A stretch of DNA of 64,000 nucleotides from the NCBI RefSeq assembly GCF_004010195.1, contig NC_057753.1, positions 14,173,937 through 14,237,936 on the forward strand, in the 5' to 3' direction. This stretch comes from Chiloscyllium plagiosum. Lineage: Eukaryota. Shown here one piece after another: positions 22,806-48,121 of the stretch (position 1 is the stretch's first letter; each line of letters opens with the position of its first letter). The translations under genes and the position numbers were made by a program. The notes below the pieces were generated by a model that saw only the letters and a program-made list of their open reading frames with translations, had not been told where the DNA came from and ran no database searches.

Positions 22806-25186
22806 TATGTTCAGAGTCAGTTTAAGATCAGGAATATTTTGTAGACACTGGGTAGCTCTCATCAATCAGATTCATCATTATAACGAACAAAACTATAGGT
22901 GGTCCACAGTGTCAGTTATACTTCAGGCAGCCCTCCCTATTTCTCGAAAATCTTCCGTAATTTTCGATTTGTGTGGGACAGTTAGCAGATCATAAATGCC
23001 TTTCCTCCCCAGATGATAATCGTTGCGTTCAAACTCACTAATTCAATACACAATTTAGATGAACTTATTCAAGGGATGGATGTCAACTGAGGATTGACAG
23101 TCAAAAACTGAGTTTAATTTTTAGTAACCTTAAATTTGAGACAAGAGGCTTGCATTTAACTCGCATTTGTTACATCTTGCCATCCAGAAAACAAAAACAT
23201 TTATCCCGACTCTCTGTCTTCTGTACATAAGTCAGTCAACTGTCAATACTGATAAAGTAATCCATATGATCCAACTTTGAAAATTAACCTTTGGTGTGGC
23301 ACCTTACCAAATGCCTTTCGGAGTTCATGTATATTCCATCCACAGAATACCCATTTTCCAAATAGCTTGTCACATCTTCGAAGAAGATGTGCAAAAGCCA
23401 AAAAACTTCAAGTTAATGATTATCACGTTAACAATGATCTAATCCAGTGATGGAACTCTTTCGATCGGCTGAGTAGCATACTTTTCCTTCTTTGTCTTAT
23501 GTTCTCCAGATCTTACCATTGCAGTCAAGTAAAAGAGTAGGGACGTAATTATAAATCATTATGCAACAAGTTGTTAACACGTAGGATATGTGACCAATTT
23601 CCTACCGGAGAGGAAAATAAAGCACTGTTTCCAAAAAGTAACCAAATACATTTACAAATTTTGGGAGGAGTAAGTTGCCTGCTATGTAGAAATGCTAGAG
23701 GAGAGTGAATCAATGAACAGTAACTTGAATCCACAAATACTGCCATGAAAGGCCGAATGGTCGCTTTTCACTCCATGTAATCATTTGATTCTAATAGTTG
23801 CCAAAAATGATAGGTGGAGAGGCGCTTTGAGGGATAAGCCAGGACAATAAAATATTCCCTTTCTGGGTGGGACACTTTCTGGATCTGATGCATCTCACTG
23901 TGCCTGTGCACATTAATATGTGGCGGAGTCTGACAACTCAATGGCCTGATATGCAAATTGATCATATTTTTTGCAAAGTCGAGGTAACAGCAACTCACTG
24001 CTCAACCTCTGGATAACTGAGATTCAGGCTTTGATCACAGCATCAAACTAGCTATTGCAGGCCATTCCCGGTAATTTGACGGTACCAGTACATGTAGTAG
24101 CTGCCCAGATTGAACTCACTGGTTTTACCGGTCAGTCTCAAAGCTTGGTCACGTAGCTCCATCTTTGCCTCCAGCTTGCTCAACACTGCCACGGAATGGG
24201 CTTCTGGTGAAGTAAGAAAGTATTCATTAAACCGAGGTGGCTACAGGTCGTACAATTCCATCAAACCCTACTCCTGAGAAACTAATAAACACGTTAATAT
24301 TATAATTGGACCCTACGCACTGGAGCTGAATGCATGAAGTAGAAGAAGAGACCTCGGTGACACTATGCTTCCTGATGCTGCGTTAACTGAGGCTGTCTAC
24401 CGTCCAGCCACTCATTGACAAAACAGTTTGGCAGATATCTGGACTCTGAGCTTCAGTGACTGGTTTTTATGATTCGGCAGAAGAGGACATGGCAGAATTG
24501 GTTTTCTGCCATTGATGTCTAATAAAAAGAGGCAGGGTTCTTCCCATACCCATTAGGCTGGGCGTCAGTACCGCCTAATTTCCAAAGTTGAGAGTTGAAT
24601 GAATTGATGGTCGATGTGTGACATTATATTCTTATTTCAAATATATACTTTGTTCGTAAAAATAGCTTTGCTTATGTACATAGTCACGAAAGTGCAATAG
24701 CATTTGATGAAAAAAAAAATCCAAAAACAATATGGAACTTCATTTAACTTCACTATAAAAAAGGACTCATTTACCCTTTGCCGCTTCCTGTATGTGCATC
24801 AATACTCGTTCTGTTCCAAAATGTTATCCACATAACAGTGAAGTTGACTGTTACTCATTAATGTCTCATTTTGGAACTTATCAAAAGCTTTCTGAAAATC
24901 CGAATGTGGCAAAAACCGTAACTCAGCAGACTTACTTTACTAGTTGGATCCTAAACAAAAATGCAATGCATATGTCAAGCATGGTTTGTCCGTTATAAAA
25001 TTATGTTGGTTTTCTCCAATCCCGTTCATTCTTTCAAAATGTTCTGTTATCCCTGTCTCTCTGTTTTAATCTCTGCCATTTTTTAAATAATGTTAGACTC
25101 ACGTTCTGTTTAGCAAAATGATTTTGCACCGTGTCCTACACGATACCGGATATTCCTGTCTCTCACAGTCTCTACATTCTCTACAC

Positions 25187-25816: not shown

Positions 25817-28800
25817 GAAGGACATGGATAATGAGGCATTTTGTTTGGAAAAGTTAGTAAAACGGGCACTCTTCGTGTAATGGAGAGAAGAGGGGGAGAC
25901 AAATGAGCTTATTGTTTTAACATCAATGCCTTCATATGGTTTAGAATTTTATTACCGAATTGATTGTCATGATCATTCGAACAGATAAAGAGGTTGTATT
26001 TGAAGGGCATTGGGCCCTTCAGCACATCTTCCACAATTGAAAAGAAATGAGGTTCATCTAACTCAGCATCACAGCATATTCTTGATAATCTTTCATCCTC
26101 TTGGTTATCGAGAATCTATTTAGGTCTACCTTAAAATACTTTATGGTTCTGCATTGAATGCCTCTTCAGAAAAGATATTGCAAATGCTCACAACCCACCG
26201 AATATTAAAAAAAAGGTTCCTTCTCTCTGAATGTAATGGGTGCTCTCTTACTTATAACAACTGAAGAGGATAGTAAATGTGTCAGAGCATTCATATCTGA
26301 CTCTTCTATTGTCTAGAGGCTATAACCAAAAGCTATCTCTGCTTTCTATGTCTATCTCAGCCTTGAATAGACCTACAGCACAGACTCTGTGGCAAATAGG
26401 TCCACAGGTTCATTTTCATGTGATGAAGAAGTGTCTACTCATAACTATATGAAATGCACACCAAGTATTCTGAGATCCGCTGTTCCACTCCAAGACTCTC
26501 CCAAAGGGGGAAACAACATTTCCGCCTTTACACTGTTAAGTTTTCATTGCGCCTCTATCAATCGTGTGGGACTGGAAGGTGGGCCCATTTCAAGAAATGT
26601 TGAGATACAACCACAGCGTCACATGATCCATGTAACTTGCTCCAAGACTCAAGATTTATTCTCATGAGAAAAGCAAAACATGTTTGACCACATTCATTTA
26701 TCAGGATGCTTCCAAACATTGAATAACTAATTTTCTGGTGCACTCCTGAGGTTCTCTTGTGAATGCTTCGACACTCCAAGTCCATGGATCGAGGGCAATA
26801 TCTGATCTATTAATTGTTGCGAACAAGTACAGGAATTAAGCATGTTCTCCAGCATTAGGGATACAACTAAAAGAAGCTGAGGAAAATCGGACTTTGATTC
26901 CATTTTAAGGTATAGGCTAATTAGATTGTGGGACTTACCCATTGCATGTGAGCCAATGTTAATCCGCAAACTCACACTTCGCACACACACTCTCTTGACA
27001 AACTGTAGGCAGCACTTTCGGTAATCTGACATAGGAAAATGAAAAAGAGCTGTTCAGAATGACAGGTATCACAAGAAAGACAACCAATGCGCGATAGAAA
27101 CATTAAAACATCAAAAACGAATTTGTAAATGTCAGCTGGTTATGCGACATGAGGGGAACAACTCCTGCACACTGTCGCTAAGTGCATCTATTGTCGATTT
27201 TAATGATCATATGTCATGCTGCACTCCCTCTGATCGAATCCATGTTTCGTTTCTCTTTGCTTTTGTATAGTAATGGAGAACGGCCAGGAGAGGGTGCAAT
27301 TGTATCACGTTGAACTGAAGGGACTGAAAAGGGAAAGAGTCGAGGAGATTTTTTTTTTAAATTAGTAGATTAACTGTTATCTTTCAATCAAATTATTTTC
27401 TCCCAAAGTGATGGACAACCGCTTCTGATCTGATATTCAACACCTGAGGCAATGTTCCAATGTCTCAAATGTTTTGCCAATGATTCGAGTAAGTCACCAA
27501 GAGTGGCAGAACAATGCACAGCATAACGTATACACACATTGAAATGCAACGTCAGAGCCCCCCAAAAAACAAAGATGTACTATTAAAGATTCAGCAGACC
27601 TACACGCACATACATGCAAGAATTTAAATAACAATTCAAACCTGAAAATCATCGGTGATCCAGGCCTTTGCCCTTTTGTTAGTGTCTGGATGAGGTACAA
27701 GAACAGCACTTCTTGCTCTGGTCTGCTGTGCAATATGAAAAGTTCAGCCACTGTTAATTTCGGTGTTACATTCTGATCAATAGGACATGAAAATGGGGGT
27801 GCGATTAAAATTGATTATCTTCGCTCTGAATATCATCATCCCAGATGAGTTGCACTTTAGATTTTCGGTCTAAGACATCGTGTCATCGTTCAAGTGACCA
27901 TTCTGAGACAACATTATTACTTGATTTTTAAAATATGCCCTTTATCATTGAATGTTGGGTGGGAAGCAAATAAAATATTTGCATACGTTCCAAACCAACG
28001 GACAAATATATCGAGATGGCCAACAGCAACAGATAAACGGGGACATATTCAGCTGTACGTTCCCTCCCAAGAAACTCACCATTCTTAATTGGAAACATAT
28101 CGTCTTTCCTTCAGTGTCATTTGGTGAAAATCCTGCCATTCTCTCTCGAACAGATCCACGTGTCTACATAGACAGCTAATACGAAAGCAGCTTCAAAAGC
28201 TAGCTCAACACGACCTTCTCTAGCTATATTAAGGGTGAGAAACAAGTATTTATCCAGCCAGCTATTCCCATTTCCCCTCAGGGAACAAATCACCTCGTAG
28301 CGAATGGTATCACCGGGGAATCAAGTTGAGATATTTTCTCAAAGTAAATCTTGAGCGTCTGAGACTCTGTAAAAAGGTAGGGCAATGCCAGTGCGCATTT
28401 TTTTACTGCCAGAGAGGCAAGCACAGTGGTGTAAAGAAAATAGTTTTTTTAAAGGATAGTTTCAGAAGAATCAGTATGAGTCAATATGTACCAAGACGCA
28501 CTCATGGGAAACAATGAATAGCCTCCCTATTGGGAAATGCAATGTGTTCCCAGGGAACAGGATGCTTGTACAGGTGATTTCTCCCATCATTTCTACCAAG
28601 TTACACACTCATGATCAAACAATAGTTCACATACACTTCCCTGGCCCTGGTGGCTGTGGAAGGCAACTCGTTGACTGTGATTGCGGAACCAGACCTCCTT
28701 CAGCTTCTTGCAGAGTGGCCGCTGTCGGGAGGGATGGGAGCCGCACCATCTGAGCACCGCTATGGCAGCGTGGGTAGATCAGGGAGGAATCGGGCACACT

Positions 28801-30294
28801 TCACTACGAGCAGAAACTCCGCGTTCTTACTGTCAGCGAAAACAGGAGGACAGTTGCTGCCATGTGCCTCTGAGCTGTGATGATTGCCATGTTGCAATTC
28901 AATTGGCATCCTGTCCAGAAACTCTGGGTGGACGGGAGATAAAGAGATAGCCTCGCCATCTCAACATCAACAACTGTGCAGAGGAAAGACAATCACTGAG
29001 AGAAAGTGAATTTGTGGAGCTTCCACGGAAATATTCCATGCTTCGTAATCAGTGAGAATCGAGATTGTTTCAGTTTTCTCAACGTGCTCAGATATTTTGT
29101 AAGTCACTTTTAGAGTTGGTGAGAGTAGAACGTGAATCCATTTGAACCAAATTTAGGAACACTGCATTGCACATCAGTAACCCCTCTGACTTTCAAGTCT
29201 CTAACTAATCTGGATTGATTCCATTCAAGATAATGAGGATAATCAATGTTAATTAGACCTCTATCTTTATCGCCTCTTGAAATGAGTGCAGCACCGAAAT
29301 AAAGAGCAAGCCTCCTCTTTCTAATGCATAAGCAGGCCAGAGCAGAAAATGAAACTGGTACGCTCCCATTCACAAACTAAACAAATACAAAGTGCTGATA
29401 TCACTTGGCAACACCTTAGTGAAACCCCAGAGAATAATAATGAGATCAGTAATGAGAATTATCATACGGAAAACAGCTGAAAAGAATTCTCTTTACACTG
29501 GTATTACGTGAACCTCCATGTGACAGCTTTTTGTTTCATCATGGAATCTTCAATGAAAGTAACGTTATCCATGACACACGGAGAAACTAAAGGCATAAGG
29601 GAATGAAGGTGAAATCAGATTAACGATAGTGAGAGGCGAACAGACGGAACGAAACCGTACCAGATGGGCGAGATTGATATGAAGTACTACATGGGAATGG
29701 TACTGAAAATTTCACTGTTATGTTGAAACTGTATACATTCATGCATTTGTCATTAAGCACGTATACGCACTGACACACTCACATGCAAACACATTCATAC
29801 ATACACAGAGCCTGGTGCCATGCTTTGTTCTAAACAGATAAACACAGTTCTATGTGATCACATCGATGACGAGCGAATTAATTCACCATTTCCTCGGTGT
29901 ACTCGAATCAACAACTTCAGTGAAACGCATTCTAAATACCCACCCACTTGTAAACTGCTGACGTGTTTCCAGATGTTCCCAACTCATTCCGTTGTGGTGG
30001 AGGTGTGGATGTGAAAGTCGACGAAGGAGAGCTTTCTGCCAACTCACTGTCTACAAATCACATTAAAAAACAGATTGTTCAGAGTGTCAATTAGAATGGA
30101 TTCTGCTCTGTGTCTGTATGAGAGCTGAGAATCTGTAATGTATTTTCTCAGCAGCTTCAGGAAGCTTTGGTTGACAGTTTGATTGTGGTAGGATGGTTTT
30201 GCATCAGTGCGTTCTTAAGCTCCTGAATGCACATAATAACTACACAAGACTCTGCAGAGACATCAAAATGAAGACCAATCTATGATCAAAAAGC

Positions 30295-30787
30295 AATTTT
30301 TGTACAGGGGAGAGACTGTTATCATCACTGTGTGGTTCCTCAAATCACAGTAATACACGACAACATCAGTAAGCTGCAGTCTGGTGATCATTAGACTGGT
30401 GAATTTCTTCGAGCTTCTGAAGTACTGCAGCAAAGTGATCTTTTGCAAACTTTGCTTTATTCTCGCCGGTTTCAGAATATCTCCTCAGTATATATTCGGG
30501 GTGTGTCTGTGCACTGCTGGTACCAATCTAATGAATAATAATTTTCTGTAGTACCATAGGTGCAACTCAGAGTCAATGCCTCTCCTTCTGTCCGAGCATG
30601 TGAGGAGATAAACTGAGCGACTGAATCTCCATGACTCAGGTCTGAAATTGGCAACAGATAATAATTGTAAAATGTCAGGCTGGTATCAACTAAAATCATG
30701 GTTTAAAAAATGAATGTAAATTGGATTTTCTCTGCATTTACCTGTCCGAATTGATCCAAACCCAACCCAAATGCGGAGTAACCACAT
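30295..30787 (-). pseudogene. psi TCR V6 (family B), frameshifted; leader 30787-30742, exon 30641-30333, RSS 30332-30295
   Basis: DLSHGDSVAQ..LSC..WYQQ / PEYILRR / KFTSLMITRLQLTDVVVYYC in three frames; CACAGTG + 22 nt + ACAAAAATT. Confidence 0.9.
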
Positions 30788-31643
30788 TGGTTCTATCCTC
30801 ACTATTACAGGGCTGTCCGATATTTGAGGACACCCATTCCAAACCTCCACCTTCAACGTACTGCTGCACTGACTCTGGATGATCCCATGTCACTGCCTGT
30901 TTTCAGTCGTGATGCTTAGAGCGTGAGAAGAAGAGAGCCGACTCTCAATATATTGACACTCCCCAAGATGCGTCGTGGTCATTGGTTTTATCACAGGTCA
31001 TTCTGGAACGAAGGCTTTCATCTATGATAAGCAATTTCACAGATTCCTAGTGCGACTGAACTCAAGATTATTGTGATAAACCAGGCATTAAAATTGGCCA
31101 CATATGACACCCACGTGATATAAGTCCCTAATGCAAACCTTGTGGACCAACAAACCATGCACTCTCAAAACACAATCCCTCAAATCCAATCTGCTGCATT
31201 ACTGAACTCAATTTCAATCTTTATCCAGCAATATTTCTGAAATCATTTTTCATAATGTTTCCCTTTATTCTGGTATTCCAGGGCTATTTCCTGCATGCGT
31301 GCTCACGATAATCAAGCATGCCTTTCTTGGTTCGTTTCAGATCTATTTAGTGAGCTGTGTTTCACTTTCTTCCCCCACCTCTCTGGGTTTGTTTTCTGCC
31401 TCGATTAACACAGAGGCCTCTCAGAACAGGACCAGTTTTACCTGTGATGAACGTCACAGTTGCTGTCTTAGAGGCAAGCACGCCTGATATCTGTGTCTGG
31501 TGTCTGTACGTTATTTACATTACGGTCTGTTTTATTTTGTGTATGTGTCTATATGACCTTTTGCATGTCCATGTGTTTCGCGTGTTTGCATTCCAAGATA
31601 TTTGCATTTGTGTGCTTTTGCACATGTGTGTTTGACTTTGAAC

Positions 31644-31645
<2 letters not shown>

Positions 31646-31689
<44 letters not shown>
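31646..31689. repeat. (TA)n microsatellite in TG-rich low-complexity region
   Basis: Perfect dinucleotide run of about 22 units. Confidence 0.95.
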
Positions 31690-31693
<4 letters not shown>

Positions 31694-32759
31694 ATCTGCA
31701 TTTGTACCTCTGGGCATGAGTGCATTTTATCTGTTTATATGTGTTTGATTATGTGTTGTGCGCCTGTGCATTCCTGTGTAAGTGATCATGTGTGAGTGAC
31801 TGTAAGAATGTTTACTTGTGTTTATTGGCTTTCCTGTATTCGCAACTATGTTTCAGTGCGTTAGCAGCTTCGGTGTTTGGTGTCGTGCCTACCACAGTGT
31901 CTGATTTTAAACAGGGTTAAAATAATTGGAAGGTTTATCTGCAGCGTTGCTTCACATTTCTAATGTCAATGCAGAAGTCATTAGTCGTTCCCTGATACAT
32001 ACATTGTTCAGAGGGATGATCCTGAATGAAAGACCGAAAACAGCTAGCAGTCTCTTCCCTGTTCCCCTCCCATCTGTTCAACATGACACAATGCCACCCT
32101 CTGTGATAGATGCACATTTCTTCACAAGAGGATGATAATAACCATTCAGGATTCAGTCAGATGGAGGATATAACCCCATTCAAACTCAAATTAAATTTAC
32201 TCACATGCAGAGTGAGTGTGCCGTCTTGGCTGCTCTCCACTCACATGTCAAGTTGAAGTTCATCAATTTACTCATTATATTTTTTTTCTGTATTTCTCTT
32301 TGCTTGAATGACTCGTGTTCAGAGACATGATTTCCGCATCTCCCATGCCAGTTTCTAGGAGTCACAATTTTTTTAAGCAGTGGTTCTGGATGCATTGACA
32401 TGTACACTCTCAACAGATCACGCAACGTGAATGAGATTAATCCTTAAAACAGACTAAAGTTTAGATTATCGTCAACTTCAACTGTTCTGCTCATGCTGTT
32501 ATACACATCACGTAATTCTTGCTTTATTCATAATGATTAACAGGTCAGACATGGATCTCCAAACATGGACTCTAAATGTGCAGCCATTTCCCGGAAAGCA
32601 GCTGAAACGTGACACAAAATCAAATGAGTTTATTGGAGGGCGGGAGATCGAAACACAAATGAGGGAAAGTGTTTGCGTTTAACACCATCAGAATCATTCT
32701 TCTATTATAGGCAGGATGAATTGGCAGGGAGACATTCTTGTAGTTTCCTTTCCTTTGTG

Positions 32760-33135
32760 TCAAGAGACTCAAAATCCTCTATCAGGTTGAAATGAAGACT
32801 TGGCAGTGCATAGGCAGAAATGTTGCTCCCCTCAATGAGGTTGTATCTGAAGAGAAGGCATAAAGTCTTAATATGGATCCATATATTTGAGAGACAGGTA
32901 AAGAGGAATATCTTTTATCAGATGGCAAAAAATCCATTGAAGTATTGACCACAGATGTCAATATACAATGAATAATCGAGGCTGTGATGTATTTTATGAG
33001 TAAGAGAATCAAGACTTCTAGAAGATAGGCAGGAATGTGAAGTTCAAAATGATCAGATCAGCTATGATATCTTCGAAATTTGTAACCAATTCTATGGACT
33101 GAATGGCCGATTTCTTTTTCTATGTCTTAGATTCT
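32760..33135 (+). mobile_element. Decayed CR1 3' fragment
   Basis: Similarity to CR1 C-terminus and 3' UTR (gactgaatggccga..tctatgtctta). Confidence 0.55.
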
Positions 33136-33487
33136 GCAGTCTTTATGACTGCGGCCAAATAATAATGTAGGCACATGTATATGCCCTTTAGACAATTAGT
33201 TGTTAAGATTTGTCATGCACGAGCAAATTGCTGGTAGAAAGGGAAGTAAAAAGCAGTAATGAAAGTAAACAGCTAAACACATGCATACACATGACGTTGA
33301 AACTACCAGTTCTGTGAAAGCAGTAGTGAAGAGAATACGATTGAGCAGTAGCAGAAATACTAGCAGAGCTCTGAAGGGCAAAATACCCCCCTTTAAGTTT
33401 AAACTCTTCTTAATCGCTGAGCTGTAGTCAATGATGGGCTTATTCGTGCTTTGAGAATCAACGGAAAATACTTCATTTCCTCTTGTG

Positions 33488-33990
33488 TTTTTTTGTACAG
33501 GTCTGGATTTGATCTTTTTCACTCTGTCCCTGCACAATAATATATTACATTGTCTGACATTCTCAATATTCTGATATTTAAAGTAAAGACGTTGTTTGAT
33601 ACATCTTTGGAAGCAGTGACTTGTCCTATAACCTCTGGATTGCTGTTGCTTTCACTGTGGTGCCAAACTAGCCATTGCAGACCATTCCCGGGGTGTTCAC
33701 TGTACCAGAACATGCTGTAGCTTCCCAGATCGACCCCGCTGGTTTTACACGTCAGTCTTAGAGATTGCCCAGGGATCCCTGACTCTGCTCCTGGCTGAGT
33801 GAACATCACCTCCAACTCGGCCCTAGTAAAGTAAAGTGACTCAGAGTTGTGTACTTCTCCACGGGAAGTGAAATAACAGGGAATGAAAATGTCTAAAATG
33901 TGGAAGAAACGGAAATTGGAAGTACGCACTCGATAAAAAAGCAAGAAACAAAAGCATAGACCTCAGCAACATAGTCCTTCCTGCAGCCAT
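33488..33990 (-). pseudogene. Immunoglobulin heavy-chain-type V segment (VH/TAILV-like) in the TCR V array, probably non-functional
   Basis: Leader 33990-33930 MAAGRTMLLRSMLLFLAFLS with donor gtgcgt; EVMFTQPGAESGIPGQSLRLTCKTSGVDLGSYSMFW..PGNGLQWLV..TASKDVSNNVFTL..IYYCAG; RSS CAGAGTG + 23 + ACAAAAAAA; 1-nt deficit after the acceptor at 33823. Confidence 0.88.
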
Positions 33991-34569
33991 GTTATATGTG
34001 ATAGTCTGGCCTCAGGTCACATATAGACAACGCAGTTTGGCGGATTGTTGGATTCTGATCCTTCCTCACAGGCGTTTATGAATAAGCAGAACGGAGGGCG
34101 TGTTTGAAGATACAGTATTGGTCGCCTAATATCGACGTTTGATGCAAATAATACAAGGTCCTGCCCATCAGTGGGGGCTGTGCTGCAGCACCATCTATTG
34201 TCAATGTTGTGTGAATAATTGAGCTCACTATTGCCCACTCAGAAAAAGATTCCATATCAACACACATATGGTCAGTTGTGGACGACAAGTTGGCTCGGTG
34301 TGGGGACAAATAATCGAATCTCTTTGAGGATTATGTGTGTGTTCCATGCTGAGATGGCAGAGTGTGTTAAATGGGGATCACAAATATGATCACTGAGGCA
34401 TTTACAGCGGTACTTTTAATAGAATTACAGAGCTGATCTGTGTGGCAATTTTAGAATTTTGACTGTGTGGGAATGATATTCACACTGAGTGTCTGGATTG
34501 CACAGATGTAAGTGTAGGAATGAAAGATATGGTCAATGTGGGGATTTTAAAGGGAGTCAGCGTGGAGAG

Positions 34570-36500
34570 TTGACTTGATTTGGTTTAATTTATTGCCATA
34601 TTTACCTAAGTACAGTGAAAAATATTTGCTTGCGAGTACAGGCAGACATTGTAAGCAAGAGCATACAGATTGTCCGGTGGAAAAATACTCGAAGAGAGTA
34701 AGGTATACGGGTTACAGGGCACATTACATGCACCAGTCAAGATCAACTTAATTTGAATTTAGCGAGTCCATTCATCTGTCTAATACCACCAGGGAAGAAG
34801 TTGTTCTTGAAACTGCTGGTGCATGTGTTCAAGCTTCTTTATCTTCTGCTTGATAGTTGGGGTTGCAGGAGAGCGCTACTCGGGTGAGATTGGTCTTTGA
34901 TGATATTGGCAGCTTTTCCACTGCTACGAGATGTGTATATGGAGATCATGGATGAGGCGTTGGCTTCCATGATGGTCTAGACTGTGCACACTACCTGATT
35001 GTTATGATCCTTGGCAAAGCAATTGCTGAAACAGTCTGTGATGAAAACCAGACGGTATAATTTGCATGGTGCATCTGTAAAGGTTGGTGATGGTCCTTAT
35101 GGACATGCCAAATTTGCTGAGCTGCCTGAGGAAGAAAAAGCTTTGATGTGCTTTCGAGATTGTTGCATTTATGTAAGAGGTCCAGGGTAGGTTGTCGATT
35201 ATCTTCACTCTTAGGAACTTGAAGCTCTCAACTCTACCAACATCCACTTCATTGAAGTAAATAGTACGTGTCCGCCTCCTTTCCTGTTGAGGTTAATATT
35301 CATTTCTTTAGTTTTTTCGACATTGAGAGAAATGGGTGTTGCCATTGCACATCGTCATCAAGCCCTGTATCTCCTTTCTGAAATCTGACTCACCATTTTT
35401 TTGACATCTGTCCTCCCAGTGGTCTCGTCAGCAAACCTGTCAATGGCGTTTGTTCAGAATTTGACTGCACAACCGTGGGTGAATAGGGACTATAGTAGGA
35501 TGAGAAAGATTCCTTGGTGGTTGGGGGTCTAGTGTTGGGTGTTATCCTGGAGGTAGTTCAGTTGTCTACCTTCACTAATTGCATTCGATGGGCCAGGTAA
35601 GAATCTAGTTGCAGTGTGTGGAGCTGGGATTTGAGAATTGGAGTTTTAATAGCAGTCTGTAGGGGATAACGGTATTAAACGCAGAGCTGTAACCAATAAG
35701 CAGTTGTCTGATGTAGATTTCCTTGTTGCCCAGATTTTTCAGGGATGAGTGCAAGGTTATGAAAATGGCGTTTGCTGCGGACCTGTTACATCGGTAGGTA
35801 AATTACAGAGGATAGAGGCAATCTTTGAGGCTGGAGTTGATGTGGTCCTTCACCAGCCTCTCGAAGCTCTTCATGACTGTGACGTTTGAGTGACGGGATA
35901 GTAGCTATTAAGGCATGTTGTATGCGCTTTCTTAGGTACTGGGATGATTGTCGTCTTCTTGAAGCATGTGGAACTTTAGCTTATAATTGGGAGAGTTTGA
36001 CGATATCAGTGCATGGCCAGCAATCCGTCTGTTCGATTTCCTTGGGTTGAGCCATGGAATGACGGTTCTGGTGTGTGCAGCAGTGACAGAGCGAGCAGTT
36101 TCATCCATGGCTGTCTGGGCAGATGACACCACTCAGATGGCATTCTGCTCGAACTGTGCATAGTAAGCAGTGAGCATATCAGGGAAAAATGCATCTGTTT
36201 TTCTGCTATCGTGTTCTGCTCCATTTTGTATCCCATTGAGTTGATTATGTCTGCCACAGGCAATGCGAGTCCATATGGTTGGTTTGGGCCCCGTACTTGG
36301 TACTGCCTCGTCATATCCACGATGGTTTTGCCGAGGTCGTACGTCACAGACTACAGAGATCATTGGTGGGAGGAATACTCAGTTGATCACTTTAGAGATA
36401 ATAATTTAGGTTGGTATGGGCATTAGTTGGGTGGATAGTGTGGAATTTTAGAAGCAGTCAATCTGAAGATTACAGAAGTGGTCAGTAGCGGCGCGAATGT
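34570..36500 (-). mobile_element. Rex1/Babar-type LINE remnant
   Basis: VESFKFL.VKIIDNLPWTSYINATISKAHQ.FFFLRQL.KFGMS..TNLYRCT and FPDMLTAYYAQFEQ motifs. Confidence 0.8.
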
Positions 36501-47649: not shown

Positions 47650-48121
47650 ATGCAGACACTGCTTGCAGTGCTTCTCATCATTATACCATTGCTCAGTAAG
47701 TATCTCTTGTCGAATCTGTTCTGGAAGCGTGCTGTCAGGAACATATTTTTACCGCTGCGAAACTGACCAAGGTAATTGTGGTTAAAACTATAACGAGAAA
47801 TCCGGTTTTTTTCCTAGATTGGAGCCAGCAAGCAACAGTGGAGCAACCAGACCCTGAAACGATGGTTGAAGAGCAAAGCAAAGTTACACTAACCTGCATT
47901 TTAAAAAGAAGCAGCAATCGAATGTACATCTACTGGTATAGTCATCGCCTTGGACAGGCTCCACATCTAATCGTTCGAATTATAGGAGAGAATCTAAAAA
48001 AGAATGGAAACTTTCCTGAACGTTTCTCTTCAATGTTTGATAGTGTTAACAAAATTACCAAGCTAAAGATCAGCAATGTACTTATTTCTGATTCTGCAAT
48101 GTACTACTGTGCTTTGGACCC
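47650..48121 (+). CDS. TCR alpha/delta-type V segment V8 (family C), intact; leader 47650-47695, V exon 47818-48121
   Basis: Leader MQTLLAVLLIIIPLL with gtaagt donor; NWSQQATVEQ..VTLTC..IYWYSHRLGQAPHLIV..DSAMYYCALDP. Confidence 0.92.

Follow-up and report, generated by a model that had tools for sequence, protein, structure and literature searches.

The stretch analysed (G000:C44:14173937-14237936, on contig C44; the window) comprises 64,000 nt of Chiloscyllium plagiosum DNA and holds on its minus strand a V segment of the immunoglobulin heavy-chain (IgH) type, with a leader exon, an intron, a V exon, and a 23-spacer RSS (Table 1). The start of the leader at ATG 33972 matches the starts of the paralogues in the alignment, and a second in-frame ATG lies at 33990. 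Aligned with these paralogues, the V exon shows both cysteines and the FR2 tryptophan, and no internal stop. It is recognized as a Pfam V-set domain (E 4e-10), and the three alignments displayed by a PDB search are all to VH-type domains. The framework quoted in the initial annotation is present on the minus strand, and its dissimilarity to the flanking TCR V segments, claimed there, is borne out by identities of 22–30% to 16 TCR V segments of contig C44, compared with 52–58% to the 10 IgM-like V segments of the same genome that were included in the tree. The nearest named proteins are from sharks, Chiloscyllium among them, while a protein search with the single V restricted to near lengths returned no matches.

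The V segments to the left of this gene share its orientation, as had been proposed for the neighbours in general, but those that follow to its right are oriented +, +, −, and +. The annotated lack of a D/J/C cluster nearby was also found, as neither the window nor C44 13.97–14.55 Mb yielded a J, D, or C motif with an RSS, and no minicluster of the IgM/IgW kind, with D, J, and IgH C within kilobases, surrounds the segment in a motif scan of 664 kb. The octamer-like element upstream of the leader is probably not a defining one, since most VH-like loci lack it. Directly after the nonamer, at 33474-33487 (−), there is a short purine-rich motif that is kept in most VH-like copies, and a perfect CACAGTG lies inside CDR2 at 33653-33659 (−), with no nonamer 12 or 23 nt away. 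Elsewhere in the window, a TCR V with an open frame at 47832-48119 (+) has an RSS spacer of 24 nt.

Table 1. Features of the VH-like segment, its relatives, and the linked TCR locus (positions without a contig or locus name are those of the window)
Feature	Position	Strand	Remark
Leader exon	33930..33990	-	phase-1 donor
Leader-V intron	33823..33929	-	107 nt, GT..TAG (GT-AG)
IgH-type V exon (likely TAILV lineage)	33527..33822	-	stop-free
Leader second part	33813..33822	-	10 nt; 11 nt in 7/7 near-full-length paralogues
In-frame deletion in CDR2/C''	33641..33642	-	6 nt, two codons, relative to all paralogues
RSS heptamer CAGAGTG	33520..33526	-	third base off consensus CAC
RSS spacer	33497-33519	-	23 nt, normal
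RSS nonamer ACAAAAAAA	33488-33496	-	normal
Octamer-like ATTTGCAT, upstream of leader	34142..34149	-	present in 3/14 VH-like loci
Second VH-like segment in window	24004..24189	-	decayed: stops, frameshift
Duplicated block, ~8 kb	28000..36450	.	broken TCR V (30338-30627) and the VH-like segment; left edge mapped to 28000
VH-like copy 14284	L035:6730-7017 = C44:14284666-14284953	-	open frame, in-frame leader, CAC heptamer
Two VH-like copies	L031:8019-8306; L032:8474-8761	+	consensus RSS; same direction as D-J-C delta
D with 12- and 23-RSS	C44:14552210-14552228	+	single D, strict and lenient scans
10 J motifs	downstream on C44	+	motif scan
C1 exon	C44:14569303	+	best own-genome match to catshark P0008 constant region
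TM exon, TCR-type	C44:14571267	+	follows C1 exon
At least 113 J-alpha-type motifs	C44:14592406-14693667	+	46 + 67, two scans; many in repeated units

The segment has its own leader, as annotated, but leader and V exon are not in the same reading frame: a single base has been lost immediately behind the splice acceptor, and the resulting frameshift brings a stop five codons past the canonical splice junction. Similarly, the annotated 23-spacer RSS is confirmed in its spacer and nonamer but not in its heptamer, which begins with CAG, compared with CAC in all seven near-full-length paralogues. Among the 35 stop-free full-length V exons found in 664 kb, the heptamer starts with CAC in 33, with TAC in one, and with CAG in this one only. 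According to an extract of one report, whose statement was not obtained with shark RAG, altering any of the heptamer's first three bases almost wholly prevented cleavage, given there as data not shown (PMC2875030). In addition to the deletion in CDR2, the intron is devoid of a stretch of ~15 nt before the acceptor, present in all seven near-full-length paralogues and possibly corresponding to the branch-point region, and the exon bears nine private amino-acid-changing substitutions, compared with seven in the sister copy 14311. With the frameshift and the CAG heptamer, the intact gene implied by the initial annotation is not supported, and the lesions visible in this copy make it likely a pseudogene. 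The loss of function may be recent, given a stop-free exon and a dN/dS that is not raised: it amounts to 0.49–0.56 against four sisters and to 0.51–0.85 among the sisters, so that relaxed selection was not detected with this measure, which has low power over ~95 codons.

An assembly error as the cause of these lesions was rejected, as contigs from two other samples with the same species label (X1 and X3; both come from one study, and their library type is not recorded) can be aligned over the lesion sites without gaps. Record 1 of X1 covers 33200-34300 and record 9 of X3 covers 33397-33831, each with 0 gaps; the latter has one substitution, at 33568, and both carry the same lesions. Since outside the lesion sites both contigs nevertheless show differences to the window and between themselves, the lesions are real and shared; this evidence comes from assembled contigs, in which a rarer intact allele can be hidden. 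The single-cell runs X5 and X6 gave 0 reads on the segment in only ~2% and ~6% of each run. No match of at least 99% to L041:400-5600, which holds copies 14338 and 14342, was found in X7, X5, X6, or X8; the V-region matches were few and partial, and the loose ends listed there resembled IgM VH. Neither of these results is a test of silence.

This segment is one of a family of loci. Of the 864 kb read around the window, the first 664 kb were surveyed with tblastn, which gave 60 clusters of TCR-type V (44 on the minus and 16 on the plus strand) and a further 15 that are VH-like; as two of the latter are pieces of one gene, 14 VH-like loci are counted. They span 154 kb (C44 14.198–14.352 Mb), with 12 in minus orientation, and comprise eight near-full-length copies (the segment described here plus seven) and six fragmentary ones. 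Five sisters look intact (14245, 14256, 14311, 14338, and 14351): their leader is in frame, their exon is open, and their heptamer begins with CAC. In copy 14284 a serine replaces the second cysteine, and the same serine is found in the matching V of Chiloscyllium punctatum P0004; copy 14342 is interrupted by a stop, and its acceptor is broken. The decayed VH-like segment at 24004-24189, absent from the initial annotation, sits just upstream of an intact TCR V. The plus-strand copies in L031 and L032 resemble the catshark V more than they resemble the segment in question; because their orientation is that of D-J-C delta, deletion could suffice for joining. Several VH-like loci have been copied together with a TCR V, and the ~8 kb block that contains the segment recurs several times, with 70–79% identity, at C44:14.305–14.354 Mb. 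This recurrence suggests that the segment was born by duplication of a TCR V plus VH-like block and then decayed.

Downstream on the same contig, 345 kb from the segment and on the opposite strand, lies a D with the J motifs, the constant exons, and the long J array listed in Table 1, an order that we take to be the layout of TCR delta followed by J-alpha. As the strands are opposite, joining of the segment to D-delta would need an inversion; most V segments at C44:14.17–14.52 Mb are inverted relative to D-J-C delta. A PDB search with the C exon of C44 gave only IgH CH1 matches, and the identity of C-delta rests therefore on the architecture and on P0008. A TCR-alpha constant region was not found in the genome with Pfam PF09291, nor was C-alpha found at C44:14.64–14.84 Mb, where N gaps are many. 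C-alpha may include a TM-like exon on C93099 (L141), and NAR-TCR V matches occur on C44 at 12.18–13.69 Mb. The synteny proposed as a check of the initial annotation was thus recovered on the delta side, with D-J-C delta and a J-alpha array in cis, but not for C-alpha.

The lineage of the V exon was examined in two IQ-TREE runs of 69 and 33 rows (LG+G4; 97 columns, few for the number of rows), from which the six fragmentary C44 copies were omitted and in which the labels IgM-like and IgW-like were set by similarity to named proteins. The segment groups with VH, away from TCR V, in both of them (support 96/99 with 69 rows and 95/97 with 33 rows), and its closest relatives are copies 14311, 14351, 14338, and 14342 (99/94). 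The VH-like group, for which the trees contain the eight near-full-length copies of C44 together with a single V from each of catshark, basking shark, and Chiloscyllium punctatum, is parted by one branch, unstarred, from the true IgH V segments, which comprise IgM-like, IgW-like, chimaera, bony-fish, and tetrapod VH (91/98 with 69 rows; 85/99 with 33 rows). As rooted in the 69-row tree, the TCR-linked group is a basal grade and not a clade, and the branch that joins it is unstarred in both trees. AU tests on the 33-row set rejected both a grouping with IgM VH (p 0.0003) and a grouping with TCR V (p 0.026), so the segment is not an IgM VH, nor, with its low identity to TCR V, a conventional TCR alpha/delta V. 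It falls outside the IgW-like V in both trees; the AU tests covered IgM and TCR V. The description as IgM/IgW-VH-like was right about the VH side, but these placements assign the segment to a separate TCR-linked VH-like lineage, which is neither IgM VH nor grouped with IgW-like V. Neither clustering of the exon with TCR V segments nor a contig unlinked to TCR alpha/delta constant genes, the two outcomes that the initial annotation had named as fatal to it, was found, since the exon stands apart from the TCR V segments and the contig is linked to a TCR-delta constant gene.

One FR2 position separates these groups. The position after the FR2 tryptophan, which presumably faces the partner domain, is occupied by Tyr or Phe in 11/11 members of the VH-like group and Tyr in 19/19 TCR V, compared with Val or Ile in 29/29 true IgH V. 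The later Leu and Trp of FR2 are mostly VH-like in the VH-like group.

Taking all of this together, the segment is explained with considerable confidence as an IgH-type V in the shark TCR alpha/delta V array, likely of the TAILV type, in a copy that is likely a pseudogene. A pseudogene call has to be weighed against a TAILV-type segment that still works at a low level, through occasional cutting at the CAG heptamer and an alternative splice that restores the frame. The stop-free exon with both cysteines and the tryptophan, a dN/dS of ~0.5, and a good nonamer and spacer are in keeping with such residual function, and on paper a donor 4 nt downstream, and acceptors 31–34 nt upstream or 32–38 nt downstream, would give an open frame. 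However, these alternative sites are weaker, the donor and the upstream acceptors being judged by eye as poorer consensus matches, two independent rare events would be required, and the CDR2 deletion and the private amino-acid changes add further damage, which together make low-level function improbable.

Two other readings concern the origin of the segment rather than its state. It could be the stranded VH of a decayed IgM/IgW minicluster that never took part in TCR chains, which would account for its identity to IgM-like VH and has a precedent in the IgM clusters that are interleaved with TCR V segments in other elasmobranchs (PMC12227049 Table S1). This origin is nevertheless very improbable in view of the AU rejection of an IgM VH grouping, the lack of D, J, and IgH C motifs nearby, the five sisters with intact frames and RSSs, a lineage common to three other shark species (catshark, basking shark, and Chiloscyllium punctatum), and the Tyr or Phe after the FR2 tryptophan throughout the group. 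Alternatively, the TCR-linked VH-like lineage could be separate from the TAILV of the nurse shark and go back to a VH that entered the locus in a parallel or older capture. The diversity of the group (47–73% identity to the segment), its unstarred monophyly, and the apparent label of the nearest catshark model, "IgWV" and not "TAILV" (PMC12227049 Table S1), are in its favor. Yet the same table lists a catshark "TAILV" gene beside the "IgWVTCRD" model, 2 kb from it; this row is probably P0008, matched by name only, and the P0008 V falls outside the IgW-like V in the trees. As position and distinctness from IgM and IgW also fit the definition of TAILV, a separate lineage is very improbable.

The preferred reading therefore remains that of a decayed TAILV-type segment, whose membership in TAILV, set by position and proxies rather than by nurse-shark TAILV sequences, is likely; protein searches gave no match that bears the name TAILV. 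What had been annotated as a cis-located gene of the VH/TAILV lineage thus stands in its VH type and its cis linkage, likely also in its lineage, but not as an intact gene. The further claim, that it provides genomic evidence of Ig-TCR locus mixing, adds nothing new, as it has already been published that the TCR alpha/delta locus of sharks contains VH-type V segments (PMC12227049 section 6, Table S1). RAG would join the 23-RSS of intact members of the family to a 12-RSS, either that of D-delta or that of a J-alpha, with an inversion where the copy is on the minus strand, and the predicted product would be a chimera in which a TCR constant region carries an Ig-like V. In the copy described here, cutting at the CAG heptamer would be next to nil, and a transcript rearranged despite this would be spliced out of frame and stop after five codons. 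This would be an example of birth-and-death turnover, in which a block with one TCR V and one VH-like V was duplicated, and one copy decayed while five sisters stayed intact.

This copy alone is of little weight, as it is probably dead and its arrangement is published. The value lies in the map, which places five intact-looking segments of the TAILV type in cis with TCR-delta, most of them inverted, and offers a possible signature against true VH; family size and the TCR-type FR2 residue are the parts worth following. Map and signature would let repertoire studies separate cis use of TAILV from IgM/IgW trans-rearrangement in Chiloscyllium plagiosum. It is conceivable, although rather doubtful, that TAILV constitutes here an expanded V family (14 loci, five of them intact-looking, amplified as a TCR V plus TAILV block) whose VH framework, with a TCR-type pairing residue, has been retooled for TCR gamma or beta V. 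If so, the five intact copies would lend themselves to tests of what antibody-like T-cell receptors bind.

In a 2019 study, TAILV was reportedly defined as an IgH-like V inside the TCR alpha/delta translocon without an IgH D-J-C of its own; its tree position is said to be apart from IgM and IgW VH, and its 23-RSS to fit D-delta and J-alpha. The name TAILV also appears in PMC12227049 (section 15 and Table S1). The segment described here is likewise an IgH-like V in the TCR alpha/delta translocon, cis to D-J-C delta, without an IgH D-J-C, distinct from IgM and IgW VH, and provided with a 23-RSS; unlike TAILV, it is frameshifted, has a CAG heptamer, and is one of 14 loci in 154 kb. The gene models P0008 (catshark, XP_038644089.1) and P0001 (basking shark), which are predictions and not cloned rearrangements, join a V of this VH-like type to a TCR constant region. 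The V of P0008 falls into the same tree group, with 58% identity and Tyr after the FR2 tryptophan, and its C region matches the C-delta exon of C44 best, but it belongs to an intact model from another shark order and is nearer to copies 14245 and 14256 than to the segment.

The VH segments of shark IgM and IgW, which are arranged in V-D-D-J-C miniclusters, can trans-rearrange to TCR-delta (PMC12227049 section 6; an excerpt of PMC6795676). They share with the segment the VH framework, the leader-intron layout, and the 23-spacer RSS, whereas the segment falls into another clade, has no minicluster, lies cis and not trans to TCR-delta, and carries Tyr instead of Val after the FR2 tryptophan. IgM-like V exons elsewhere in the genome (L015, L016, L020, and L028) run into D-like or J-like sequence without an RSS and look like germline-joined VD or VDJ genes. 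Finally, use of VH on TCR-delta in sharks and other vertebrates is described in the consulted parts of PMC6795676, PMC7615758, and PMC12698447. The VH-delta of coelacanth, amphibians, birds, crocodilians, and monotremes is, as far as the parts of PMC7615758 and PMC12698447 go, likewise an antibody-type V in the TCR alpha/delta locus, but of other lineages than the shark segments.
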